Shown here piece after piece: positions 2,063 to 22,163 of a stretch of 64,000 bases of DNA. How positions within the stretch are numbered: the first letter of the stretch is position 1; each line of letters starts with the position of its first letter. This DNA comes from Minisyncoccota bacterium (GTDB lineage Bacteria > Patescibacteriota > Microgenomatia > UBA1400 > UBA12028). The stretch is from contig JACRHV010000004.1 in the NCBI GenBank assembly GCA_016211945.1, forward strand, positions 130,649-194,648. The letters are read 5' to 3'. The notes below the pieces were generated by a model. The model was given only the letters and a program-made list of their open reading frames with translations. It did not search any database and was not told where the DNA came from. The position numbers and the translations under genes were made by a program.

Positions 2063-3625
2063 TTATAACTCCTTGTATGCATAGCCCATCTTTTGTAACA
2101 TTTCCTGTACGGATTTTCTGGACATTACGTTCTTATTAACAAAAAGGCACATGTCGGTATTGTGCTGAGTAACATACCCATACTGCTTCCATACATCATG
2201 CGGAAATAGCGCTTTTGCATCCTTTGTGGGACTACACCAACCTGCATCAACAAATGAAGGTTGGAACTGTGCATACATGCGTTCTTTTGCTAAAGAAAAA
2301 AGCGAAATAGAATCTGTTACTGGATAATCAAACACATAGTCATACGCAGAAGGTCGCTGTGCCACGAGATAGGTAAGGCTTCCCCAACCATGAACAAAAA
2401 CAGTGTCTGTTTGTTGAGACAACGCATGAATAAGTTCTCCTTTTTGAACATAGTCAAGGTAGTGTGTTGTGAACTCGTTTTCTTTCTCTACCTGTGCATA
2501 GAGAAACGATTGTGGATTGAGATAACACACACCAAACATAAGAAGAAGAATCGGGAATAGTATTCGTGTCTTTCTGTTATTCTTCCTATACTCACGTAAA
2601 CCAATGAGAGCAAAGGTGAAAATAGCCCCATACCACGGTAGTTGACGATAAGCCTCGTAAAACGCTGTTCCTGGAACAACAACTCGAACCGCAAGAAGGC
2701 CGAGAACTAAAAAAGAAAGGATGAGAACTCGACGATATTTTTGTATTGCAACCAGCGCCGTACTCACAAAAAGAATGACTCCCACAACCACCACTTGAAT
2801 AAGGCGAACATACGTTACTTTCCCAGAAAAAACGATGTATACCGGATAAAAAAAACTTTTTACTACACTCATCCAAAGACTTCCATTTTGTTTTATCTCT
2901 CCGGAAACAATGCCAGTCATGTTCAGTGAGGTCATGCTGAAAACATATGATTTCCACGGAAAAAGAGTGAGTATCAGAACCACGATAAAAAAGATCATAC
3001 TCAAAGAGAGTATTCCTTCGCGTGTTCTCCACACGTCTCGCATAATAATTCCATACATAATTAATGCAGGTGGTATATATGGTTCTCTTGAGAGTAAAAA
3101 CAGTAGTACACATGTTCCGTACAAAAGATAGTCATGATATTTCAATGGAGTGTTGTGCACCATAGAGTCCCACATTCCGGCAAAAAGTATTGCCGAAGGA
3201 TATACCAAAAGTGCTTCTGCTAAGAACAGATTGCCGAATGTATAAAACATCGTTGCAATGTGGAATGCGACAACACCCAAACCGATGTATCGAAGTTTCC
3301 AGATTGTAAGTGCGCCAAAAAAAACAAGATACATCCCAATAAAAATTCGATGAATTACTACGACTTTATACAACGTAAGTGGGCTTACCGCGTACTGAAT
3401 TATTGCGCTTACCATAGGCATAAGTGGTTGATGATTAAAAAAGATTTCACTGTATAACATCCTCCCTTGAATCATGTAATATCCGGCAACCCAATTATTA
3501 AATTCATCGACAAAACTAAACGATACTGATCTGCTGTAGGATACATAAAAAGTGAGTATTAGTAGAGCGATGCTCGTCATTAAGAAAAAGTTTTTCCGAA
3601 TGCACTGTGAAATACGTTTTACCAT
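2063..3625 (-). CDS. GT-C fold membrane glycosyltransferase (GT39/GT83-like) with C-terminal soluble domain
   Basis: 520 aa. An N-terminal TM helix is followed by a 'FVDEFNNW' acidic loop motif typical of the first extracytoplasmic loop of ArnT/PMT-type enzymes. There are multiple TM helices, then a ~130-aa hydrophilic C-terminus. Confidence 0.55.
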   Translation of the reverse strand: MVKRISQCIRKNFFLMTSIALLILTFYVSYSRSVSFSFVDEFNNWVAGYYMIQGRMLYSEIFFNHQPLMPMVSAIIQYAVSPLTLYKVVVIHRIFIGMYLVFFGALTIWKLRYIGLGVVAFHIATMFYTFGNLFLAEALLVYPSAILFAGMWDSMVHNTPLKYHDYLLYGTCVLLFLLSREPYIPPALIMYGIIMRDVWRTREGILSLSMIFFIVVLILTLFPWKSYVFSMTSLNMTGIVSGEIKQNGSLWMSVVKSFFYPVYIVFSGKVTYVRLIQVVVVGVILFVSTALVAIQKYRRVLILSFLVLGLLAVRVVVPGTAFYEAYRQLPWYGAIFTFALIGLREYRKNNRKTRILFPILLLMFGVCYLNPQSFLYAQVEKENEFTTHYLDYVQKGELIHALSQQTDTVFVHGWGSLTYLVAQRPSAYDYVFDYPVTDSISLFSLAKERMYAQFQPSFVDAGWCSPTKDAKALFPHDVWKQYGYVTQHNTDMCLFVNKNVMSRKSVQEMLQKMGYAYKEL

Positions 3626-3673: not shown

Positions 3674-5350
3674 ATGCGTGCTTTATGGATCGGTACTCTC
3701 GGCATTTTTTTCCTTGCACTTTTGGTTCGACTTCCGCTTTTTGGATCGATTCCAGCTGGACTGAATCGTGACGAAGCAGCGCTTGGGTACAACGCGTACA
3801 GCATCTTCAAAACTGGTAAAGATGAGTATGAAAAGGCATTTCCGCTAAGCATTACTTCATTTGGTGATCAGAAATTGCCTGGTTATGTGTATACACTCAT
3901 TCCATTTATTGCTCTTTTTGGATTGGAGACATGGGTTATCCGCATACCATCGTTTATCGCAGGAATTGCAATCATTTTTCTTCTCGGCATGATCGCAAAG
4001 CACATGAGTTATCTTTTTTTTAAACAGAAGACACATCAGCATATATTTGTGTGGTGTTCCATGTTTATTGTCGCAATAAGCCCTTGGGCAAATCATTTTT
4101 CAAGAGTAGCATACGAAGCACATCTCGCCCTTGCATTCTTTCTTGGAGGACTACTGATTTATCTCCGGGCGCGAACTTCACGAGGTTTCAAAAATACCGT
4201 ATGGTGGACTGCGTTGTTTTGGTCGGCAACGCTCCTAACATATCACAGTTATCACATCCTCATTCCACTTATGGTACTGGGATTGTTTGTCCTTGACACT
4301 GCAACAGTGTTTGCTACACGAAAAAAAATACTTCTTGCGTGTAGCCTTATCGTTTCTCTCGTTCTCACTGTCATGATGATTGGTGGAATATGGAGCGGTA
4401 ATACAAAAAAAAGTCAAGGTATTTCACCCTTTCATACAGACAGCGTGTGGAGGTCTGTGTTTACCTATAGGTCAGCAACACGAGATCTGGGAGTACTGCA
4501 AAAAGTACTGTTTAATCCCCCTGCAGAAATGGCAACACGCTTCTTGACCAATTACGCGACAACGCTCTCGGGAGGATTTTTCTTTGTTCGTGGCGGAGAA
4601 AATCCGGATCATAACCCAGGAGGAATACCAAACCTCCACCTTTTCGCACTACCATTTATCCTTATCGGAGTTGCGTCCCTTTGGGAAAAACGTACAGTAT
4701 CTGAACATAAAATTTTATTCATGTGGATTTTTGGTGCACTTGCAATACCGGCGTTTACCATACACCCAGAACACACGGTGCGATTATCCCCATTGTTTCC
4801 CACGCTTGACCTCCTTACAGGATTGGGGGTCACTCTCTGTTTCACATGGATGCGCACGAAATTTCAACAGTATGCGTATGGCATTATTTTCCTCTTTATC
4901 GTCATATGGAGCATGGGCAGGTACATGACACAATATCTCGTGCTCGCGCAAACATCCTCAGTTTCACACGAGAAATACCATCTTCTTGCCAAAGCGATAG
5001 AGAAGTACCGGACATCAATAAATGAAGTAGTGACACAGTCGCCTAGCTCATCACCATATATTTGGTATCTTGTAGAAACCCAGTACAACCCGCGCCTCCT
5101 CTGGTCGACTATTGATCGATACCCCGAAGATGCAAAATATTTCCGGCATGTCCATAAAGTTGGAAACGTAACATTTGAAAGCATTCAGTGGAATTCGCTT
5201 TTTGATCGTGTGAAACAACACCCGATCGTTCTTATTTTTGAGCCGCGAGAAACACCAGGAGAAATTCGAGAAAGTGGCAAACTTACATTTTTAGAGGCAC
5301 TGCGGGACCAGTTTGGAAATACACAGTATGAAGTATGGAGGGTGGAATGA
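3674..5350 (+). CDS. Glycosyltransferase family 39/83-like (ArnT/PMT-type) membrane protein
   Basis: 558 aa. 'RLPLFGSIPAGLNRDEAALGYNAYSIFKTGKDEYEKAFPL' is the DE loop motif of polyprenyl-phosphate-sugar dependent GT-C enzymes. It has about 11 TM segments and a ~130-aa C-terminal soluble domain. Confidence 0.65.
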   Translation: MRALWIGTLGIFFLALLVRLPLFGSIPAGLNRDEAALGYNAYSIFKTGKDEYEKAFPLSITSFGDQKLPGYVYTLIPFIALFGLETWVIRIPSFIAGIAIIFLLGMIAKHMSYLFFKQKTHQHIFVWCSMFIVAISPWANHFSRVAYEAHLALAFFLGGLLIYLRARTSRGFKNTVWWTALFWSATLLTYHSYHILIPLMVLGLFVLDTATVFATRKKILLACSLIVSLVLTVMMIGGIWSGNTKKSQGISPFHTDSVWRSVFTYRSATRDLGVLQKVLFNPPAEMATRFLTNYATTLSGGFFFVRGGENPDHNPGGIPNLHLFALPFILIGVASLWEKRTVSEHKILFMWIFGALAIPAFTIHPEHTVRLSPLFPTLDLLTGLGVTLCFTWMRTKFQQYAYGIIFLFIVIWSMGRYMTQYLVLAQTSSVSHEKYHLLAKAIEKYRTSINEVVTQSPSSSPYIWYLVETQYNPRLLWSTIDRYPEDAKYFRHVHKVGNVTFESIQWNSLFDRVKQHPIVLIFEPRETPGEIRESGKLTFLEALRDQFGNTQYEVWRVE

Positions 5351-6746: not shown

Positions 6747-8183
6747 TTACGTCCGTAATGTTCCCAACTCAAATAACAACTTTTTTCGTCCAACAACGAA
6801 AAGGGCTATTCCGTATGAAAGCACTCCGATAATTCCACCGGCAAACATCCAGACAAACGATCTCTCCCAATAAGAGAGCCCTAAGAGCAATATTCCTGCC
6901 ATGACTGCGCTAGCCACTCCCTGTCTCCACAACTGATCCCACGCTTCAATCTTGACAAATTTCTTTACCATCTGAATCGTGATAAAAGAGGTTCCGGCAA
7001 TCAAGGCTGACGCAACCGCAACTCCAGTGAAGGAAAAGAAGTACACACCAATTGGCGTTATGGTCCAGGTAAGTATGGTCCACATCACCATAAGTTTTAA
7101 TGTACTGTTAATCTTTCCTATCGCGTTTAAGGTGTTTGTCAGTGGAGATGATACTGCTGCAAACGCAACATTCATACAGAAAAAATAGAGAGAGGGAATG
7201 GCCGGTTGCCATTTCGCGTACTTTGGAATAATCGCAGTCATAGGGAGCGCTAATACGGAAAGCCCTACAAGCACCGGAAATATCACAAGCGTGATGAAGT
7301 AGAGTGATTTCTCTATCGCGCGTTTGAGCTTTTCCGGATGCTCTTGGAGACGAGAGAAGGTTGGGAAAGTTACAGACATAATACTGTTGACACTAAATTG
7401 ATACGGAAATAATGACCATCGCTTCGCCCAACTCACATACCCCATTTGAGTGGGATCCAAAAACCTTGCGAGAACCACAACAAACAAATCGTCTTTGATA
7501 CGCGCAAGAAAATCATTGAGTTGGAACTTCGCTCCAAATTTAAGAAGTGAGTGTAGCGAATTACGTGAAAGAGCCAATCCAATGGGCCATCGCTGAATCG
7601 CATATATCACGGCCACACCCACAATACTACGAGCTAATACCGCATACGTATAGCTTCGCACCCCAAATCCCTGAGCCGCTAACACTACCGCTATTCCATA
7701 AAACAGGACATTCTCAATAATTTGCGGAAACACCAATTTGCTAAACTCTAGCTTTCTCTCCAATAAAATCGATGGAATAGTTTTGAGTGATGCGAGAACA
7801 AATGAGAAGCCTAATGCATACAAAAGCATCAATCCGTCACCGGAAATACCTTTCTGCATCCTCCAAATTGGCGTGAGTGCAATGGTGAGACCAAAAATAA
7901 CGAATGCTAATCCTTGTTGAACGGTGAATGTTGTACGCAAGTCATCAATGGTCGGCTGATCTTTTTTCTGCACAAGCGCAGCCGCCAGCCCAACATCAGA
8001 TAAAAATGTCAGTAAACTTACTGCTGAGGTCACGATAAAATAAATGCCAAAATCTGCGGGTGTAAGATAATATCCCAACAGGACTGTTGCTACAAAACCA
8101 ACCGCCTGCAACGCAAGTGTGCGAAACGCGTAGCTGATAACTCCCCGAACCGACTTACGCCGGACGTCGTTGGTGTCGATCAT
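6747..8183 (-). CDS. wzx: Polysaccharide/oligosaccharide flippase (Wzx/MOP superfamily, 'polysaccharide biosynthesis protein')
   Basis: 478 aa, about 12-14 TM. The N-terminus 'VRGVISYAFRTLALQAVGFVATVLLGYYLTPADFGIYFIVTSAVSLLTFLSDVGLAAALVQKK' is the canonical Wzx/RfbX N-terminal signature. Confidence 0.8.
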   Translation of the reverse strand: MIDTNDVRRKSVRGVISYAFRTLALQAVGFVATVLLGYYLTPADFGIYFIVTSAVSLLTFLSDVGLAAALVQKKDQPTIDDLRTTFTVQQGLAFVIFGLTIALTPIWRMQKGISGDGLMLLYALGFSFVLASLKTIPSILLERKLEFSKLVFPQIIENVLFYGIAVVLAAQGFGVRSYTYAVLARSIVGVAVIYAIQRWPIGLALSRNSLHSLLKFGAKFQLNDFLARIKDDLFVVVLARFLDPTQMGYVSWAKRWSLFPYQFSVNSIMSVTFPTFSRLQEHPEKLKRAIEKSLYFITLVIFPVLVGLSVLALPMTAIIPKYAKWQPAIPSLYFFCMNVAFAAVSSPLTNTLNAIGKINSTLKLMVMWTILTWTITPIGVYFFSFTGVAVASALIAGTSFITIQMVKKFVKIEAWDQLWRQGVASAVMAGILLLGLSYWERSFVWMFAGGIIGVLSYGIALFVVGRKKLLFELGTLRT

Positions 8184-9816
8184 AAAATAGCACGCCTCCT
8201 ATAATAAACAAACTCATCGTAGAAAGTACATTCGACCACATACGCAAAGGTGTGTCCTCAAATTTTACACTTATGACATGATCACCCTCTTCTAACGGAA
8301 CTTCGATAAATCCCGATTTCTCCTGAACCTGGAAAGATATCTTTTTCCCATTGTCATAGACCGTCCACCGAGGGAACCATGCAACGCGAACCAGAAGATT
8401 TCCGGTATTTTGTAGTTTGAATCGCAACAGTTTTTCATGTGTGCGGTCAACCAGCACTTCCAGTGGTAGTCCCTCTTGTTCCTTCACCTCAAACTGCCGT
8501 TGAAATGGCTTTTGTATCTCACTCATGCCGACTGGAATATAGTCCGGCAATATTTCACTCATCTGAGACTGAATCAATTTTGGATCTTCGTAGTACATAG
8601 ACCGAGGATCCTCCAATAAATTCACTGGTTGGAAAAGCGAAAGATTTACTCCAAGTAACAGCGCGACCGAAATGAACGCTATTGTAATTCTTTGCCACTG
8701 TTTGATCCCAACCATAACGACCGCTCCTGATAATACAGGAAGAAAAACTGTAGAAACCGAGAGAAATCTCCATGGAAACTGAAAATACTGAAATAACGAA
8801 ATTTTGTCCCAAAGAAACTGACTTTTAAAAATCGTCATGAAAAGAGCGAATAGCGTGATGGCAGCAAAGTACGAGAAGAAAAGTTTTATGTTTACTTGTT
8901 GTGACCTCAAAAATAGTGCTATAAATCCAATCAATGTTAAAACGATATGTACTGTCCCCAACTGAAATGACAGTCCATCTTCTGGTCCCAAAATCGATCC
9001 TCCATACCCCCAAATTCCCGTAAATAACTGGCGAATATACAAGAAGTGGAAAGTGTATGCGCCATATCCACCAATAAGTTTGTCAACTTGTGTGTATCCC
9101 TTTTCGAAAAATGAGGGAAGAATATAAAAAGAAGCTGCTCCAATTCCGAGTAATAGAGAGAGATGCATCTTTGTCCAGTACAGTATTTTCTTTTTTCCAA
9201 AAAAACCAAGGAGTAGTCCACATCCGTAGATGATTGGACTAAACATCATGGTCATTAAATTGTGTGAGGTAAAAAAGAGAAATAAAAGCGCTGAAGTTCC
9301 TGCAGTCCATTTCCATGATAACGTTTCCCTCAATCGAATAAAACCATACATTATCCAAGGAACCAAGGTTATGGCGAAAAGTTCATTGAACGCTCCGCGG
9401 ACAAAGACATCAACAGCTCTATATGGAATAAGGAGAAATGCTGTTGCCGCCACAACACCACCGAGCTTCCCCATATAGCGAGAACTGAGCAGATACATCC
9501 CCCAATATCCCCCCATGAACATCGCAAAAAGGAGTAGTTTTATACTCACAAGACTGGAAAATCCTAAAAGATAGAACCCTTCAGCTAGATAGAACGGCAT
9601 TGGACCGTAAAAACTGAAAAGAGGCATTCCGTACCCAAATCCCAAGTCCTTCACCCAACGCACCGGGAAATGACCATCGGCGATTGCCCGATCCATTTCC
9701 ACCAATCGGGCGACGTGAGTAAAATCGTGGACGGGGAAAAAAGTTGAGTTCACCAATGGTCGAAGCGTAAGAAGTGTGAGAAGCAGACCGAGTATCCACA
9801 CACCAAAGTGTTTCAT
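8155..9816 (-). CDS. Large polytopic membrane protein with C-terminal extracytoplasmic domain, GT-C-like (COG5617/PTPS-related-like)
   Basis: 553 aa. The N-terminal 'FFPVHDFTHVARLVEMDRAIADGHFPVRWVKDLGFGYGMPLFSFYGP' loop follows TM1. Then there are more than 10 TM helices and a ~170-aa soluble C-terminus. The family assignment is tentative. Confidence 0.45.
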   Translation of the reverse strand: MKHFGVWILGLLLTLLTLRPLVNSTFFPVHDFTHVARLVEMDRAIADGHFPVRWVKDLGFGYGMPLFSFYGPMPFYLAEGFYLLGFSSLVSIKLLLFAMFMGGYWGMYLLSSRYMGKLGGVVAATAFLLIPYRAVDVFVRGAFNELFAITLVPWIMYGFIRLRETLSWKWTAGTSALLFLFFTSHNLMTMMFSPIIYGCGLLLGFFGKKKILYWTKMHLSLLLGIGAASFYILPSFFEKGYTQVDKLIGGYGAYTFHFLYIRQLFTGIWGYGGSILGPEDGLSFQLGTVHIVLTLIGFIALFLRSQQVNIKLFFSYFAAITLFALFMTIFKSQFLWDKISLFQYFQFPWRFLSVSTVFLPVLSGAVVMVGIKQWQRITIAFISVALLLGVNLSLFQPVNLLEDPRSMYYEDPKLIQSQMSEILPDYIPVGMSEIQKPFQRQFEVKEQEGLPLEVLVDRTHEKLLRFKLQNTGNLLVRVAWFPRWTVYDNGKKISFQVQEKSGFIEVPLEEGDHVISVKFEDTPLRMWSNVLSTMSLFIIGGVLFYDRHQRRPA

Positions 9817-16039: not shown

Positions 16040-17011
16040 CTACTCTGTTGATTTCTTCTCACTCTCAAGTTCTGCCTCAACCATAATGCGAACGAGTTCG
16101 GGGAAACTCGTTTTTGGAGCCCATCCCAACTTCTCTTTTGCTTTTGACGCATCTCCAATAAGATAGTCTACCTCTGCGGGACGGTCATATTTTGCATCAT
16201 GTTCATAGATCGCCTCCCAATCTGGAATTCCCGCTACTTCACACGCCAATCTCAGGTACTCGCGAACTTCGTGTGTTTGACCTGTTGCGATAACAAAGTC
16301 ATCGGGACTTGATTGTTGGAGCATAAGCCACATCGCCTCAACATAGTCCTTTGCGTATCCCCAGTCTCTTTTAGAGTTAAGGTTACCAAGTTTAATTGTT
16401 TTGTCTTTTCCGAGTTTTACGCGTGCAACACCGTTTGCAATTTTACGCGTCACAAACTCTAAACCACGACGAGGAGACTCATGATTAAATAAAATACCAG
16501 AACACGCAAAAAGATTATACGATTCGCGATAGTTTACCGTAATCCAATGGCCATACACCTTTGCGACACCATATGGTGAACGTGGATAAAACGGCGTTGT
16601 TTCTTTTTGCGGCGTTTCCAATACTTTTCCGAACATTTCCGAGCTTGAAGCTTGGTAGAATTTTGCATCCGGCTTTGCGAGTCTCATCGCTTCTAGTACT
16701 CGCGTTACACCCAAAGCCGTAAACTCACCTGTAAGCACCGGCTGATCCCAAGACGCCTGCACAAAACTTTGGGCCGCAAGATTATAAATTTCGTCTGGTT
16801 TGACTTGTTGGATGGCGTATGTAATCGAGTGCTGATCAATAAGATCACCGGAAATCAACTCAACCTCATGAATAATGTGTTGAATGCGCTCAAAATTTTG
16901 CGTGCTTGTTCTTCGCGTAAGACCGTAAACCTTGTACCCTTTTTCAAGTAAGAACTCCGCAAGATACGATCCGTCTTGACCAGTAATACCGGTAATCAAC
17001 GCTGATTTCAT
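16040..17011 (-). CDS. gmd: GDP-mannose 4,6-dehydratase
   Basis: '[36 protein letters not shown]' plus conserved GMD blocks throughout. The start is chosen at ATG 17009-17011, giving an ATGA overlap with the upstream gene. The ORF-track N-terminal extension is rejected. Confidence 0.9.
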
Positions 17012-17946
17012 ATGTTCCTCCAATATTCCAATACTCTTTGTAACGTATGTTCGAGTGGAATTGTCGGATTCCACCCCAATTCTCGAATCTTTCTGTTATC
17101 TGCCACAATCTCCTTGATGTCAAGTGGGCGGAGACGTGACTCATCTTTTACAACCTTCACCACAGCCTTCGACATTCCAACTAATTTCTGAAGTACCTCG
17201 GTCATACTTATACCGACCCCTGTTCCAACGTTATACACATCGCCACCATTTCCTTTTTCCATAAGCAGAATATACGCATGTACCATATCTTTGACATCAG
17301 TAAAATCGCGGATACCAGAAAGATCTCCCACATGTAACTCGGCCTGCTTACCTTTTTCAATCATGGCAATTTGTTTTGCGAATGCAGAAACAGCAAACTC
17401 TGGAGACTGCCGTTCGCCAATATGATTGAATGGTCGAACTCGAATGATATTGAGTTTGTATGAAACTGCGTATGCATACGCCAACATATCTTGCGCTAAT
17501 TTTGAGACGGAATACGGATTGATAGGGCGAAACGGATGAGACTCAGACATCGGCAATTCGCCATCTTCACTCAGTCCATACTCTTCCGCAGAACCAATAA
17601 TAAGTGTTTTTGCTTGTGGAACAATTTCTCGCAAACCCTCAAGAATAGAAAACTGTAATCCAAGATTATTGATCAATAATTCTTCACCCTTTTGAAAGCT
17701 TTCTCCAACAAACGCAAACGAGGCAAGATGAAAAATCCAATCTGGCTTTATGTTTTCTAGTACTGTTCGTACTGCAGTTTTGTCTGTTAAGTTCACATTT
17801 ATTATGTGATCTTCTTGTAGTAAAGATGCAATAAAATCAGGTTTGCCAAACGCTGTACCATACACATCGGAATGCCCTTTCGCCAATAACGCTTCTATAA
17901 GATGCGATCCAGCAAAACCGGAAGCTCCTGTCACTAAAATCTTCAT
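17008..17946 (-). CDS. rmd: GDP-4-dehydro-6-deoxy-D-mannose reductase (Rmd-like SDR; makes GDP-D-rhamnose); GDP-fucose synthase is less likely
   Basis: 312 aa extended SDR: '[16 protein letters not shown]', YxxxK, and '[10 protein letters not shown]...RDFTDVKD', which resembles the Rmd 'RPFNHIGPGQ...RDFLDVQD' more than the Fcl motifs. It is translationally coupled to gmd. Confidence 0.65.
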
Positions 17947-20669
17947 ACAACTCCTACGCCAATATATGTTATTCCCGCTTTTTTCAACTCGTCGCGCTGT
18001 GCAACATATTGATTGCGCACATCAATAAAGACACCACGACCACCCATCGCTTCTCTAATACGAGAAACTTCCAGTGAAATAAGTTCTGGCCACTCGACTA
18101 AAATCATCACAACATCCGCACCAGCAATCGCTGTTTCCACTGTTTTTGCATACGTGATATTCCACTGAGGGAACCATTCTTTTGCTACCGGAATGGCCAT
18201 GGGATCGTATGCTGTAACTATTGCACCCGCATCAATGAGAAGTGGAATAATCTTTGTTGAAGGAGCCTCACGCATATCATCAGTATTTGGCTTGAATGAA
18301 AGACCTAAAATCGTTACTTTCTTTCCTTTCCACCCCCCAACAGCATCCTCATATCGCTTCATAAGATGTGAGATGCGATCTTCATTGAGCTCATTAATCT
18401 TCACCATTAAATTCCCATCTTGTTTGATCGCTTTTGCATACGCTGCAAGTTCCTTGACGTCTTTTGGAAAACAGTTGTGTTGAATAAGTCCTGAAGCGCC
18501 AACAACAGTGTGTGTGCTTGTTTCGAGACTATACACAAATGTATCTACTTTCTCGCACTTGACTTTAAGAATTTTTAGCAAAGCATATGAGCCATTGCGC
18601 TTGAATCCACGTTGCGCAATTTTACGTTGGTACCCTGCGAGTATTTTTTTGATATTATTATGACGTTTATTTCCAAATAAATCAGTAAGTTGTTCCATTT
18701 GGTTATATCCATTTATTCGTAAAATATATGCGAGATGTTTTGATTTATTCATCATCCTGCTACGAATCGATGGTACAAAACCAAGACTTTGTAATAAAAG
18801 TGCTGTTCCGTCTGCTAATGATTTACTTACCGTTGCATACTCAAACATCATATTCTTACCATGTTGCAATCTTGTAACAGCTCCATCTCCACTAAACATT
18901 CCTCGAAGCAATTCGAAACGCAACTCAGATGACACGTTAAATGCTATGCTTGGTAACGTTTTATCCACGGAACAGGTGCCCATCTTTAAAATATCTCTAA
19001 ACAACCAAGAAAAAACTCGACTTGATACGATGGTTGATATTGCATGAGTGCTATGTCTTTCAATATGCTTCATTCCTAAATTTTGAAGAATACGCTGAAC
19101 ATCGGCAATATATTCATGCTCTAATTCACTGAAGGAAAACTCTACCCTATCCCGTTGCGCGCCAACTCTTCCAATATCACGAGTTATACATCCTTCAGCC
19201 AAATAGTATCCACAAAGTCTCATAAAATCTTTATCAATCGGAATATGTGCATTAATCTTTGTTGCCGCACCTTTCGCCGTATACAGTTGTAAAGTGTTTA
19301 TAGGTAAATGTAACGCTCTACGTTGAGAGAGATAATAATATAATGACAATGACATTCGATTATTTTGTTTTATTTCATACGGATAGCGAAGCATACTCTT
19401 TGGAATATGTCGTGCATATAATGGATAGTATTTGGTAAAACTCAAGTCTGTTGATGAAACATATACTGCGCTCATTAATGATGTATTTTGCAAAAGATCA
19501 ATAAGATTCAAATCATTTGGTTTTTGAACGATTGGCAAGTCCATAAGTGCCATTACTTGGTCTCTTGTAGAAACGGCAAAAGCAGGAACTACTTTAAATG
19601 AATCACTTTCCCGAAGAATAACTGGATGATCAGATGTAACGCGCATTGTGCGCCCCATACTCGTACTGATCGTAACCATATCACCTATATACCGACGACG
19701 AGTTACGGCATAAACATCAGCAAGACTGGGACTTCCTGTATCAAGATTAAATGCAAGTACTTTTTGATTCTTAGGTTTCAAGACTTCTACCTCACCAAGA
19801 GATGATCGTTCTCCTTTTTGCTGAAAAATATTGTCTAATCGCTGCGTTCGAACATTTGGACTATTGAGGGTAAAAATTGTTTCATCTCCCTCAAAACAAC
19901 TTCCTCCGTATCCAAATCCCGGGTACCAATAATGCTTTCCGATACGCTTGTCAAATCCAATGCCTTCAATGACTTCAAGAATATTCGCTCCATTTACCTC
20001 GCACAAGTTTGCAATTTGATTGATAAAGGTTATGCGAGTTGCGAGATAGGCATTTGCCGAGTACTTGCACATTTGTGCACTCTCCGGTTTCATCACAACA
20101 ATTTCTGCCTGAAGTGGTTTGTGCAACTCTGACAATGTTTCAATAACCTTAGTTTCCGTTGCGCCAACAATAATACGATCTGGATGAAGTGTGTCTTGAA
20201 CTGCCGATCCTTCTTTCAAAAATTCCGGAAGTGAAGCCATTGAAAAACGAACTTGCGTTTTTGCTTTGATTCTTTCTGCAACTTTCGCGTTGGTTCCCGG
20301 AGGAACGGTACTTTTAATTGCAACAATTGCGCCATCTTTGAGGTAAGGTGCGAGACTTTCTGCGGCAGCAAAAACATATTTCAAATCAGCTTGTCCGTCT
20401 GAAGCTGAAGGCGTTCCAACCGCTATCATGATGACATCGGCTTGCGAAATTGCTTCTTGATATGAAGTTGTGAAATGAAGGTCTCCTTTTTCAACTCCAG
20501 TTTTCACTAATTCTTCTAGCCCTGGCTCGTAAAAGGGAATCTGCGCTTTCTTAAGTTTTTCTATTTTTTCTTCGATAACGTCAAGTCCATAGACCGTATT
20601 CCCAAAAGACGCAAAAACCGCAGAGGACACAACACCGACAAAGCCTGTTCCGATGACTGTAATAACCAT
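17943..20669 (-). CDS. ugd: UDP-glucose 6-dehydrogenase (nucleotide-sugar dehydrogenase) precursor containing a 475-aa intein
   Basis: N-extein residues 1-257 are a typical UGDH NAD-binding domain: 'MVITVIGTGFVG...' ending in 'GFGYGGS'. The C-extein starts 'CFPKDVKELAAYA...', the UGDH catalytic-Cys motif. The exteins sum to 433 aa, a normal UGDH length. Confidence 0.85.
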   Translation of the reverse strand: MVITVIGTGFVGVVSSAVFASFGNTVYGLDVIEEKIEKLKKAQIPFYEPGLEELVKTGVEKGDLHFTTSYQEAISQADVIMIAVGTPSASDGQADLKYVFAAAESLAPYLKDGAIVAIKSTVPPGTNAKVAERIKAKTQVRFSMASLPEFLKEGSAVQDTLHPDRIIVGATETKVIETLSELHKPLQAEIVVMKPESAQMCKYSANAYLATRITFINQIANLCEVNGANILEVIEGIGFDKRIGKHYWYPGFGYGGSCFEGDETIFTLNSPNVRTQRLDNIFQQKGERSSLGEVEVLKPKNQKVLAFNLDTGSPSLADVYAVTRRRYIGDMVTISTSMGRTMRVTSDHPVILRESDSFKVVPAFAVSTRDQVMALMDLPIVQKPNDLNLIDLLQNTSLMSAVYVSSTDLSFTKYYPLYARHIPKSMLRYPYEIKQNNRMSLSLYYYLSQRRALHLPINTLQLYTAKGAATKINAHIPIDKDFMRLCGYYLAEGCITRDIGRVGAQRDRVEFSFSELEHEYIADVQRILQNLGMKHIERHSTHAISTIVSSRVFSWLFRDILKMGTCSVDKTLPSIAFNVSSELRFELLRGMFSGDGAVTRLQHGKNMMFEYATVSKSLADGTALLLQSLGFVPSIRSRMMNKSKHLAYILRINGYNQMEQLTDLFGNKRHNNIKKILAGYQRKIAQRGFKRNGSYALLKILKVKCEKVDTFVYSLETSTHTVVGASGLIQHNCFPKDVKELAAYAKAIKQDGNLMVKINELNEDRISHLMKRYEDAVGGWKGKKVTILGLSFKPNTDDMREAPSTKIIPLLIDAGAIVTAYDPMAIPVAKEWFPQWNITYAKTVETAIAGADVVMILVEWPELISLEVSRIREAMGGRGVFIDVRNQYVAQRDELKKAGITYIGVGVV
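18474..19898 (-). mobile_element. Intein with LAGLIDADG homing-endonuclease domain, inserted at the Ugd catalytic cysteine
   Basis: Starts 'CFEGDETIF' (block A Cys1). Block B 'RVTSDHPV' (TxxH). LAGLIDADG motifs 'LCGYYLAEGC' (nt 19188-19217) and 'LLRGMFSGDGAV' (nt 18876-18911). Blocks F/G '...VYSLETSTHTVVGASGLIQHN' end in His-Asn, followed by the extein +1 Cys (nt 18471-18473). Confidence 0.8.
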
Positions 20670-20720: not shown

Positions 20721-21383
20721 ATGCAGATTGATATTCTCACAACATTACCCTCAATGTTTACTGGGCCGTTAACAGAAAGCATGATGAAGCGAGCGCAAGA
20801 TAAAAAACTCGCTGAGATCCGTATTCACGACCTTCGTCAATGGACACAAGATAAGCATCGATCAACTGACGACCATCCGTACGGAGGTGGACCAGGGATG
20901 GTGATGATGATCGAGCCAATAGATAAAGCACTTCAATCTTTCAAAGCAAAAAAAGGGACAAAGCAAGAACTCATCATTCTTACCTCTGCAAAAGGGAACG
21001 TGTACACTCAACAAACTGCACAAACATGGAGTACCTCGATCAAACGTCTCGTGATCATCTGTGGACATTATGAAGGTGTTGATGAGCGCGTTGCACAGTA
21101 TTTGGTTGACCAAGAGGTACGGATTGGCAACTATGTCCTTACTGGGGGCGAGCTTCCGGCAATGGTCATGATCGACAGCATTGTTCGATTAATTCCAGGT
21201 GTACTTGGCGATCACGAAAGTGTAAAAAATGAATCGCATACTATTCTTGGATATTTAGAATATCCGCAGTACACTCGGCCAGAAAATTACAACGGATGGG
21301 AAGTTCCACAAGTGTTATTGGGTGGAAATCATAAGGCTATTGAGGATTGGAGAAAGAATCCTACGTTAAATAAGTCCTTTTAA
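20721..21383 (+). CDS. trmD: tRNA (guanine37-N1)-methyltransferase
   Basis: 'MQIDILTTLPSMFTGPL...DDHPYGGGPGMVMMIEP...' is the canonical TrmD SPOUT signature. 220 aa. Confidence 0.9.
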   Translation: MQIDILTTLPSMFTGPLTESMMKRAQDKKLAEIRIHDLRQWTQDKHRSTDDHPYGGGPGMVMMIEPIDKALQSFKAKKGTKQELIILTSAKGNVYTQQTAQTWSTSIKRLVIICGHYEGVDERVAQYLVDQEVRIGNYVLTGGELPAMVMIDSIVRLIPGVLGDHESVKNESHTILGYLEYPQYTRPENYNGWEVPQVLLGGNHKAIEDWRKNPTLNKSF

Positions 21384-22163
21384 TTTGTTCCATTGCTGTA
21401 GTGCCATAGCTGCTACAACTTCTGACGAAATTGGTTTTTCCCCATCGTCAGTGTGTATTAACCGCGGTTTAATATGTACATCAAAAAATCTCTCGTATAT
21501 GCTGTCTGTTCTCTGAGCATATAAATCATGGCGCCGGGATAAAGTTTGTGCGCGAGTAATATCAATTTTCCCAGGATTCCTGGGCTCCATTAATGAGTCT
21601 ATTGTTTTTTCTACATCTGTATCTTGATGTTGTGGTAAAGCATATCCACTTATTTTTAATACTATTTTTTGACCATCTACGACCTTCTTGAGATATATGG
21701 AAATGTAACTATTTGTGTGAAAAAGTTCTTGATCCGCTTGCGCGTGACGCAGCTCGTGCTCAGACAGTGTTTCTCCGCGAATTTTATGTCCAGTGCTGAG
21801 CGTTCCAATCATGTTTGGATAGGAAGGATCGAGTGTCATTAAATCATAATCATCTATTTGTATTTTAGTATCACTGCTTTGATTTTTTCTCATTTCAAAT
21901 AGGATATGGAATAATTCTTTTTCAAAAATTGGAAGAAAGTGAGCATCCGCAGGAAAATAAAATACAAAACAATTTTCTGGATATCCAACGTTCTCTATCT
22001 GAACCTCTTCCTCGTATACTTTTTTCAATGTTTCTGCTATTTTTTTCCGTATAACTGGAACGACTTTACTCGGTTCGATATGTTCTCTAAATAGGCGTTT
22101 TCCCTCATGAAAATTAATTTCATCTTGTTTTAGTTTTAGTACAGATTCTTCTCTAAATATCAT
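21366..22163 (-). CDS. Hypothetical cytoplasmic protein, translationally coupled to rmlD
   Basis: 265-aa ORF. Its ATG overlaps the rmlD stop as ATGA. It is hydrophilic with no recognisable motif. The 3' end overlaps the convergent trmD 3' end by 18 nt. Confidence 0.5.
   Translation of the reverse strand: MIFREESVLKLKQDEINFHEGKRLFREHIEPSKVVPVIRKKIAETLKKVYEEEVQIENVGYPENCFVFYFPADAHFLPIFEKELFHILFEMRKNQSSDTKIQIDDYDLMTLDPSYPNMIGTLSTGHKIRGETLSEHELRHAQADQELFHTNSYISIYLKKVVDGQKIVLKISGYALPQHQDTDVEKTIDSLMEPRNPGKIDITRAQTLSRRHDLYAQRTDSIYERFFDVHIKPRLIHTDDGEKPISSEVVAAMALQQWNKLKGLI

Follow-up and report, generated by a model that had tools for sequence, protein, structure and literature searches.

A udp-allele LAGLIDADG intein at the catalytic cysteine of UDP-glucose 6-dehydrogenase in a Microgenomates bacterium

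Within a 64,000-nucleotide stretch of contig JACRHV010000004.1 (assembly GCA_016211945.1, a Minisyncoccota bacterium), referred to here as the window, the gene ugd for UDP-glucose 6-dehydrogenase (UGDH) is interrupted by a sequence with the hallmarks of an intein. The reading frame is uninterrupted over 2.7 kb and encodes a precursor in which the N-terminal extein ends in GFGYGGS at residue 257, the insert begins with CFEGD at residue 258 and ends with GLIQHN at residue 732, and the C-terminal extein resumes with CFPKD at residue 733. Removal of the insert leaves an enzyme of 433 aa. The original prediction for this DNA, made from its letters and open reading frames (ORFs), had given the same 475-aa insert (18474..19898), 257-aa N-extein and C-extein starting at CFPKD. 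These boundaries are exact to the base, and the motifs it quoted (CFEGD, TSDHPV, LCGYYLAEGC, LLRGMFSGDGAV and GLIQHN) all stand where it placed them, TSDH(PV) at intein residues 88-93. Base composition changes at the insert as well, with a GC fraction of 0.33-0.38 inside it versus 0.41-0.44 in the flanks. Among the window's other ORFs, the ten largest were scanned and contain no further intein. The features of the precursor gene, all on the reverse strand (-), are as follows.

17943..20669 (-): complete precursor ORF, 908 aa plus stop; UDP-glucose/NDP-sugar (nucleoside diphosphate sugar) 6-dehydrogenase, intein-interrupted
19899..20669 (-): N-extein, aa 1-257; carries the NAD-binding domain and the larger share of the central domain, C-terminal end ...YPGFGYGGS
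18474..19898 (-): 475-aa intein (aa 258-732 of the precursor); member of the udp / UDP GD allele
19896..19898 (-): Cys1 of the intein, block A; predicted nucleophile of the first N-S acyl shift, present in 64/64 family members
19626..19637 (-): block B, TSDH (T88, H91); T and H invariant in the family
18624..19253 (-): LAGLIDADG homing-endonuclease domain, approximate limits, intein aa ~216-425; the most conserved part of the intein
19188..19217 (-): LAGLIDADG motif 1, LCGYYLAEGC, intein aa 228-237; putative catalytic residue E235
18876..18911 (-): LAGLIDADG motif 2, LLRGMFSGDGAV, intein aa 330-341; putative catalytic residue D338
18519..18536 (-): block F, VYSLET; its Ser kept by 98% of the family
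18474..18491 (-): block G, GLIQHN, intein aa 470-475; His474 in the penultimate and Asn475 in the terminal position
18471..18473 (-): +1 Cys, precursor aa 733, equal to mature-enzyme aa 258; predicted splicing nucleophile and UGDH catalytic thiol
17943..18473 (-): C-extein, 176 aa plus stop; carries what remains of the central domain as well as the UDP-binding domain, N-terminal end CFPKD

The host protein is readily recognized on both sides of the insert. Three NDP-sugar dehydrogenase domains of Pfam all exceed their cutoffs in the precursor, namely UDPG_MGDP_dh_N (PF03721, E 6e-61), the central domain (PF00984, 2e-28), which is interrupted at the insertion point, and the C-terminal domain (PF03720, 8e-30). 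The NCBIfam model TIGR03026 scores 418 bits versus a cutoff of 190, and the best equivalog, TuaD, scores 425 bits versus a cutoff of 700 with the interrupted precursor as the query. The closest solved relatives of the spliced enzyme are all UDP-glucose dehydrogenases, and the spliced 433-aa sequence and the solved UGDH 4a7p align over their full length (E 2e-99), gap-free over GYGGSCFPKD.

The residue that follows the insert was mapped by phmmer using a 100-residue query in which this Cys is residue 60. The match to human UGDH is ungapped (query 2-75 versus chain 218-291) and places the +1 Cys at Cys276, for which covalent catalysis has been shown experimentally (PMC3265891). The predicted splicing nucleophile is therefore also the catalytic thiol of UGDH, as originally proposed. 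The proposed comparison with Streptococcus pyogenes Ugd returned a match to 1dli, starting at query residue 3 and chain residue 203 (an offset of 200) and containing one 2-residue indel; the +1 Cys would correspond, less firmly, to Cys260, on the assumption that the indel lies downstream of it. Since a 54-kDa insert splits the central domain beside the nucleophile, the precursor is likely to be inactive, and it is plausible that enzymatic activity appears only upon splicing. We suggest that the gene be annotated as an intein-containing UDP-glucose 6-dehydrogenase, neither a fusion nor a pseudogene.

The best genomic relative of the locus comes from Microgenomates group bacterium GW2011_GWC1_46_15 (L001), which itself carries an intein in ugd. 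Neighbouring proteins are 47-82% identical at the amino acid level, and both genomes share the gene order rmlB-rmlC-rmlD, trmD (opposite strand), ugd, an epimerase of the short-chain dehydrogenase/reductase (SDR) type, gmd, GT2-GtrA and PMT_2. This gene order and the identity of the neighbours identify the host as a Microgenomates bacterium of the Candidate Phyla Radiation (CPR, or Patescibacteria).

Domain searches and structural modelling agree with the original prediction on the nature of the insert. Pfam detects LAGLIDADG_3 (E 4e-18) in two stretches together with Intein_splicing (35.8 bits), and the NCBIfam model TIGR01445 (intein_Nterm) scores 33.3 bits versus a cutoff of 24.5. Among sequences in the PDB, the best match to the intein is PI-PkoII (2cw7, E 8.6e-13), and PolII mini-inteins match as well. 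An AlphaFold2 model of the intein, built on a 12-sequence family alignment, has a predicted local distance difference test score (pLDDT) of 90.1 and a predicted template-modelling score (pTM) of 0.89. The top Foldseek matches to this model are 2cw7 PI-PkoII (E 6.5e-30, TM 0.69/0.62), the TliVMA intein, PI-PfuI and PI-SceI. The nuclease domain matches I-DmoI with a TM(target) of 0.73-0.77 as well as I-Tsp061I and I-OnuI variants, and the Hint domain matches the Pho RadA and PolII mini-inteins with a root-mean-square deviation of 1.5-2.1 over ~120 residues. A free-standing nuclease was considered and rejected, since the insert is exact, in frame and carries a Hint domain.

On alignment the insert contains every residue expected of a class-1 intein (C1, T88-S-D-H91, H474-N475 and Cys+1), each 95-100% conserved among 64 full-length inteins of the family. 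Cys1, Thr88, His91 and Asn475 are invariant in this set, and His474 is conserved at 95%. Both acidic residues of the LAGLIDADG motifs are present (LCGYYLAE235G and LLRGMFSGD338G); E235 is conserved at 95% and D338 at 98%. The nuclease domain as a whole has a higher mean majority-residue frequency than the splicing lobes (0.77 versus 0.70-0.72). The original prediction had regarded a bacterial copy with an intact homing endonuclease as uncommon; this finds no support in current databases, in which the matches are bacterial and both acidic residues are conserved at 95-98%. The window intein departs from the consensus at 9 of ~167 strongly conserved columns (family median 5, interquartile range 3-9), with none of the nine at a catalytic residue and four common to the L001 intein, and this comparison within the family gives no sign of decay. 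As judged from its sequence, the insert is a full-length, intact-looking class-1 intein with a nested double-motif LAGLIDADG endonuclease.

Structurally, then, the element resembles PI-PkoII (Thermococcus kodakarensis Pol intein-2, 2cw7), PI-PfuI (1dq3) and PI-SceI (1vde), which likewise combine a Hint domain with a nested double-LAGLIDADG nuclease. These three, however, occupy other host genes (DNA polymerase, ribonucleotide reductase and VMA1, respectively) at other insertion sites, are 12-18% identical to the window intein in structural alignments, and have had splicing and cleavage demonstrated, whereas the window intein is known from its sequence and a model. The nearest profiles outside its own allele are those of the Tes intein (NF045703, E 1.6e-29), Tes being the archaeal tetraether lipid synthase, and of the PolII large subunit (NF011303, 2.4e-24). 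Both match nearly the whole intein, with scores far under the whole-protein cutoffs because the intein part alone matches, and both differ from the window in host and insertion site.

The family to which the intein belongs, udp or UDP GD, is known since 1996, with Methanocaldococcus jannaschii as its archetype. The name 'UDP GD' itself returned no match in our literature search. The udp allele is described by Soucy et al. 2014 (PMC4071816) in M. jannaschii, other Methanococcales, T. gammatolerans, Halorubrum, Dictyoglomus thermophilum and a Fervidibacteria genome; two of the carriers listed are bacteria. The published Halorubrum junction reads GVGWGGS↓CLTGDQ... on the N side (the arrow marks the junction), and intein-free haloarchaeal genes read ...SCFPKD across it (PMC4071816). 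Using the intein sequences of that paper's supplement for an archaeal comparison by blastp, we found the window intein to be 33% identical to the M. jannaschii archetype over residues 1-475 (E 5e-86) and 29% identical to the Halorubrum intein over the same range (E 6e-56). Identities to T. gammatolerans (E 1e-49) and Dictyoglomus (E 1e-45) are 28-29% over 1-475, and for the EM19 intein (Fervidibacteria) the alignment covers only residues 46-475, at 28%. The window intein shares with this allele the host enzyme family, the site after GGS with the catalytic Cys as +1 residue, the order of domains, the C...HN/C termini and a similar length (454-481 aa). It differs in being hosted by a CPR (Microgenomates) bacterium, in belonging to a bacterial subclade centred on Chloroflexota whose members are 55-65% identical, and in block B, where the window has TSDH and the majority of the subclade TADH. 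This subclade is not described in the literature searched. Given these comparisons, the window intein is a member of the long-known udp / UDP GD allele, and its novelty lies in the CPR/Microgenomates host.

In current databases the matches to the window intein are bacterial. A search of 5.8 billion proteins with the intein returned 84 matches, all bacterial and nearly all UDP-glucose dehydrogenases by annotation or domains. A scan of GTDB with one genome per species gave 313 relatives confirmed by tblastn, from which 79 loci were retrieved. All 79 are bacterial, and their junctions, wherever readable, conform to GxGxGGx↓C...HN↓C(F/L/I)P(K/L)D; every readable junction among the 84 proteins and the 79 loci falls at the site used in the window. 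Of the 65 inteins for which both junctions are available, 47 measure exactly 475 aa. Hosts are mainly Chloroflexota (Ktedonobacteria, Anaerolineae and Thermoflexales), with other copies labelled Planctomycetota, Armatimonadota/Fervidibacter, Abditibacteriota, Omnitrophica and Bipolaricaulota, and the protein searches add Andersenbacteria (CPR) and Persephonella. When 1.84 billion cluster representatives were searched exhaustively with a profile, 164 matched at E <= 1e-30, and among the 145 representatives that were newly returned at least 66 contain the dehydrogenase junction motif. A profile made from the four most divergent family members gave 17 matches, none with an archaeal name. The original prediction that UGDH inteins are known mainly from archaea holds for the literature searched, in which UDP-GlcDH is among the top intein hosts of archaea but not of bacteria (Novikova et al., PMC4760082 Table 2; see also PMC4071816), but not for current databases, in which all 84 proteins and 79 loci are bacterial.

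Several members of this collection merit separate mention. In two Bipolaricaulota loci (L078:5313-6728 and L079:878-2293), a 30-31% identical intein resides in a WecC-like NDP-sugar dehydrogenase paralogue at the homologous catalytic Cys (junction GPGIGGH↓C...VHN↓CIPLD), so that the family has moved from one paralogous host gene to another while keeping its structural site. The intein of Omnitrophica bacterium 4484_171 (L075:2399-3769) shares 62% identity with the UDP GD intein of M. jannaschii and is thus much closer to it than to any other bacterial copy, which suggests a fairly recent transfer between an archaeon and a bacterium in a hydrothermal setting. Shortened or eroded copies occur among P0033, P0054-P0058, P0061, P0071, P0081-P0083, L020, L042, L069, L071 and L077. 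Some of these are 236-358 aa long with the nuclease domain deleted or scrambled, L069 and L071 measure 416 and 397 aa, and in others Asp replaces the penultimate His or, in L071, the C-terminal end reads KQ. All stages of the homing cycle are represented. Frameshifts or stops interrupt the intein-bearing gene in L063, L064, L068 and L070, several of them in metagenome-assembled genomes (MAGs) with very long contigs, and could reflect either genuine decay or consensus errors of assembly. Finally, five proteins of ~1180-1260 aa (P0236, P0237, P0246, P0249 and P0251) match the intein profile at full length at residues ~135-645 without the dehydrogenase junction motif, and probably carry a related intein in another host protein.

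The nearest relatives of the host gene lack the intein. The 120 sequences nearest to the spliced enzyme, which come from Patescibacteria, Microgenomates and Woesebacteria and are 59-86% identical to it, are all ~433 aa long and intein-free. The closest of these, P0100 (86% aa identity), lies on the Logan contig L080, which is collinear with the window over ~9.8-25.8 kb; the encoded neighbours share 84-94% identity, and only two flanking ORFs, which are poorly conserved, fall lower (60-69%). In a blastn comparison of the window with L080 the alignment breaks at the intein only, the spliced ugd measures 1302 nt in both, and the junction peptides are identical. The DNA of the empty site in L080 reads ...GGATATGGGGGCTCA|TGTTTTCCCAAGGAT..., the bar marking the position of the insertion. 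In the extein tree, the window gene is sister to the intein-free P0100 and the L001 gene is sister to the intein-free P0116 (98.2% aa), and the smallest clade holding both intein-bearing genes comprises 23 of the 63 taxa, with a minimum bootstrap of 9.

The intein-bearing gene of L001 (L001:5224-7956) was compared with the intein-free gene on the P0116 contig from another sample (L081:6001-7302). At the DNA level the background identity of L001 and L081 is 85-92%, that of the outer parts of ugd is 98-100%, and identity falls to 86-90% within ~100-170 nt on each side of the insertion. Since the proteins are 98.2% identical, the substitutions near the site must nearly all be synonymous. This pattern fits co-conversion during homing or, alternatively, replacement of the intein by an intein-free segment, and together with the conserved nuclease domain it favours a homing cycle of invasion and loss that is ongoing within Microgenomates. 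The Ser codon that precedes the insertion (AGT in the window and L001, TCA in L080) was considered as a marker and dropped, since all six Ser codons occur in the 65 intein-bearing loci. A viral carrier was also sought. The phage matches in GenBank are distant inteins of other genes, no more than 30% identical over a stretch of the nuclease domain, and 42 loci from IMG/VR are 21-33% identical, mainly in the nuclease domain only, with no carrier indicated.

Comparison of intein and host gene across phyla indicates horizontal spread at some time. Between the window and L001 the intein is 65% and the extein 70% identical, whereas between the window and Chloroflexota the intein (55-64%) is more alike than the extein (41-49%). 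In a neighbor-joining (NJ) tree of inteins, the window and L001 are sisters (bootstrap 100/100) nested within a clade dominated by Chloroflexota. GC content at third codon positions (GC3) is 0.26 in the window intein and 0.34 in its exteins, with a mean of 0.69 in the other, mostly Chloroflexota inteins; across the family, intein GC3 follows host GC3 (r 0.87) and lies 0.06 lower on average. The low GC3 of the window intein argues against recent import from high-GC Chloroflexota, and, taken with a sister intein in L001 that is only 65% identical, it points to long residence in low-GC CPR genomes. The recent horizontal arrival originally suggested for this intein thus survives only in a weak sense, in that its closest relative lacks the element, and is at odds with the divergence from L001 and the low GC3.

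These observations make it very probable that a functional-looking class-1 intein of the udp allele lies just upstream of the catalytic Cys codon of ugd and has been homing within Microgenomates after an old entry from a Chloroflexota pool. The splicing and cleavage steps of this model follow established intein chemistry and knowledge of the family. The 908-aa precursor would fold, and Cys1 (aa 258) would perform an N-S acyl shift at the Ser257-Cys258 bond. The resulting thioester would be handed by trans-thioesterification to the +1 Cys (aa 733), cyclisation of Asn475 assisted by His474 would free the 475-aa intein, and an S-N shift would create a normal Ser-Cys peptide bond. The product would be a 433-aa UGDH in which Cys258 is then available as the catalytic thiol. 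The excised intein would act as a monomeric double-LAGLIDADG endonuclease employing the acidic residues E235 and D338, most likely cleaving intein-free ugd at the conserved sequence that encodes GGS↓CFPKD, and repair would copy the intein in. The intein would have entered Microgenomates long ago from a large pool centred on Chloroflexota and persisted there by repeated invasion and precise loss; such cycles would leave the closest relatives of both intein-bearing Microgenomates genes intein-free, as is seen.

Several points weigh against this model. Every step after translation is deduced from conserved residues and the fold; the Pfam Intein_splicing match is barely at its cutoff (35.8 bits); the trees are NJ and not maximum-likelihood trees; and some host labels of MAGs (Proteobacteria, Clostridia and Acidobacteriota) are possible binning errors. 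Block F of the window has a Ser at a position that is usually Asp in other class-1 inteins, and this Ser is found family-wide (98%). A sliding identity scan of the window versus L080, at a DNA background of ~80%, makes no co-conversion tract visible. Vertical inheritance with several precise losses is also formally inseparable from repeated homing.

Could the element instead be decaying or dead, with inefficient splicing or an inactive endonuclease, so that ugd is effectively a pseudogene or the intein a passenger awaiting loss? Decayed relatives are indeed known (the forms of 236-358 aa, those with Asp for the penultimate His and the one with a KQ end), the window intein has nine changes at conserved columns where the family median is five, its GC3 is below that of the exteins, and its closest relatives manage without an intein. 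Yet the 2.7-kb frame is open, the catalytic residues of both activities are all present and the length is the family-standard 475 aa. The nine deviations, moreover, fall inside the interquartile range of the family and are mostly conservative, those common to L001 being lineage markers, and conservation of the extein is high (86% identity to P0100, which is intein-free). We therefore regard a dead intein as unlikely. A chimeric assembly or binning artefact, with foreign DNA joined into ugd, might be read from the GC dip of the insert and from the lack of a record of the exact 908-aa protein in the public gene index. But the insert keeps the reading frame to the codon, and taking it out restores a UGDH of exactly the orthologous length; the same codon is used at all readable junctions of 79 independent loci, including that of a syntenic Microgenomates genome; and a small GC3 deficit of the intein is the family norm (mean -0.06). 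An artefact was accordingly rejected, as an insertion so exact and in frame leaves it virtually no chance.

A regulatory role can be envisaged as well, in which a disulfide between Cys1 and the +1 Cys, or redox or metal sensing, gates the production of UDP-glucuronate (UDP-GlcA). The Cys1/Cys+1 pair is invariant, the +1 residue doubles as the enzyme nucleophile, and the intein is unusually constant in length and highly conserved across phyla. Conditional splicing governed by cysteines is documented elsewhere, for example for mycobacterial DnaB inteins (PMC6195587, PMC7360933). Nothing specific to this element points to regulation, however, and its patchy occurrence, with nearest relatives that are intein-free, would be expected of a selfish element rather than of a useful regulator. 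A Cys/Cys pair is the commonest class-1 arrangement, and the strong conservation of the nuclease domain speaks for homing. Such a switch is, in our view, improbable. A broader version, prompted by the constant length, the conserved nuclease domain and the use of the catalytic thiol as splice nucleophile, holds that the bacterial udp clade as a whole is a conditional redox or metal switch on the supply of UDP-glucuronate to the envelope, and that its sharing by Chloroflexota and CPR could trace DNA exchange between episymbionts and their hosts or neighbours; we consider it highly doubtful. Homing of a functional-looking intein remains the interpretation that we prefer.

It is plausible that the glycan genes beside ugd depend on the UDP-GlcA it would supply. 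Immediately downstream, an SDR epimerase/dehydratase gene (17008..17946, -; 312 aa) shares 4 nt with the end of ugd, overlapping its stop codon, and is apparently translationally coupled to it. Its product reaches no equivalog cutoff in NCBIfam, where the best matches (LegB-like, RmlB and GalE) are all far below threshold; it could be a consumer of UDP-GlcA. The gmd gene that follows (16040..17074, -; TIGR01472, 439 bits) has a listed GTG start that overlaps the upstream SDR gene by 67 nt. The profile match starts at residue 23 and the L080 orthologue is 323 aa long, so translation probably begins at an internal Met, residue 22. Between rmlD and trmD lies a 265-aa ORF (21366..22163, -) without a Pfam or NCBIfam match, which is conserved at 69% aa identity at the same place in L080 and absent from L001 and L081, L001 having an unrelated 219-aa ORF there; this position is thus a variable slot beside the ugd operon. 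Elsewhere in the window, three large ORFs of 520-558 aa (2063..3625, -; 3674..5350, +; 8155..9816, -) have no Pfam domain at E <= 1e-5.

The finding leaves the understanding of inteins and of UGDH unchanged. It extends the hosts of an allele that has been on record since the M. jannaschii genome to a CPR/Microgenomates bacterium, and it shows that genome collections now hold many bacterial members of the udp allele, mostly from Chloroflexota, where the literature searched lists a couple of bacteria. The two pairs of intein-containing and intein-free alleles, window/L080 and L001/L081, are natural substrates for tests of homing and co-conversion in uncultured bacteria.

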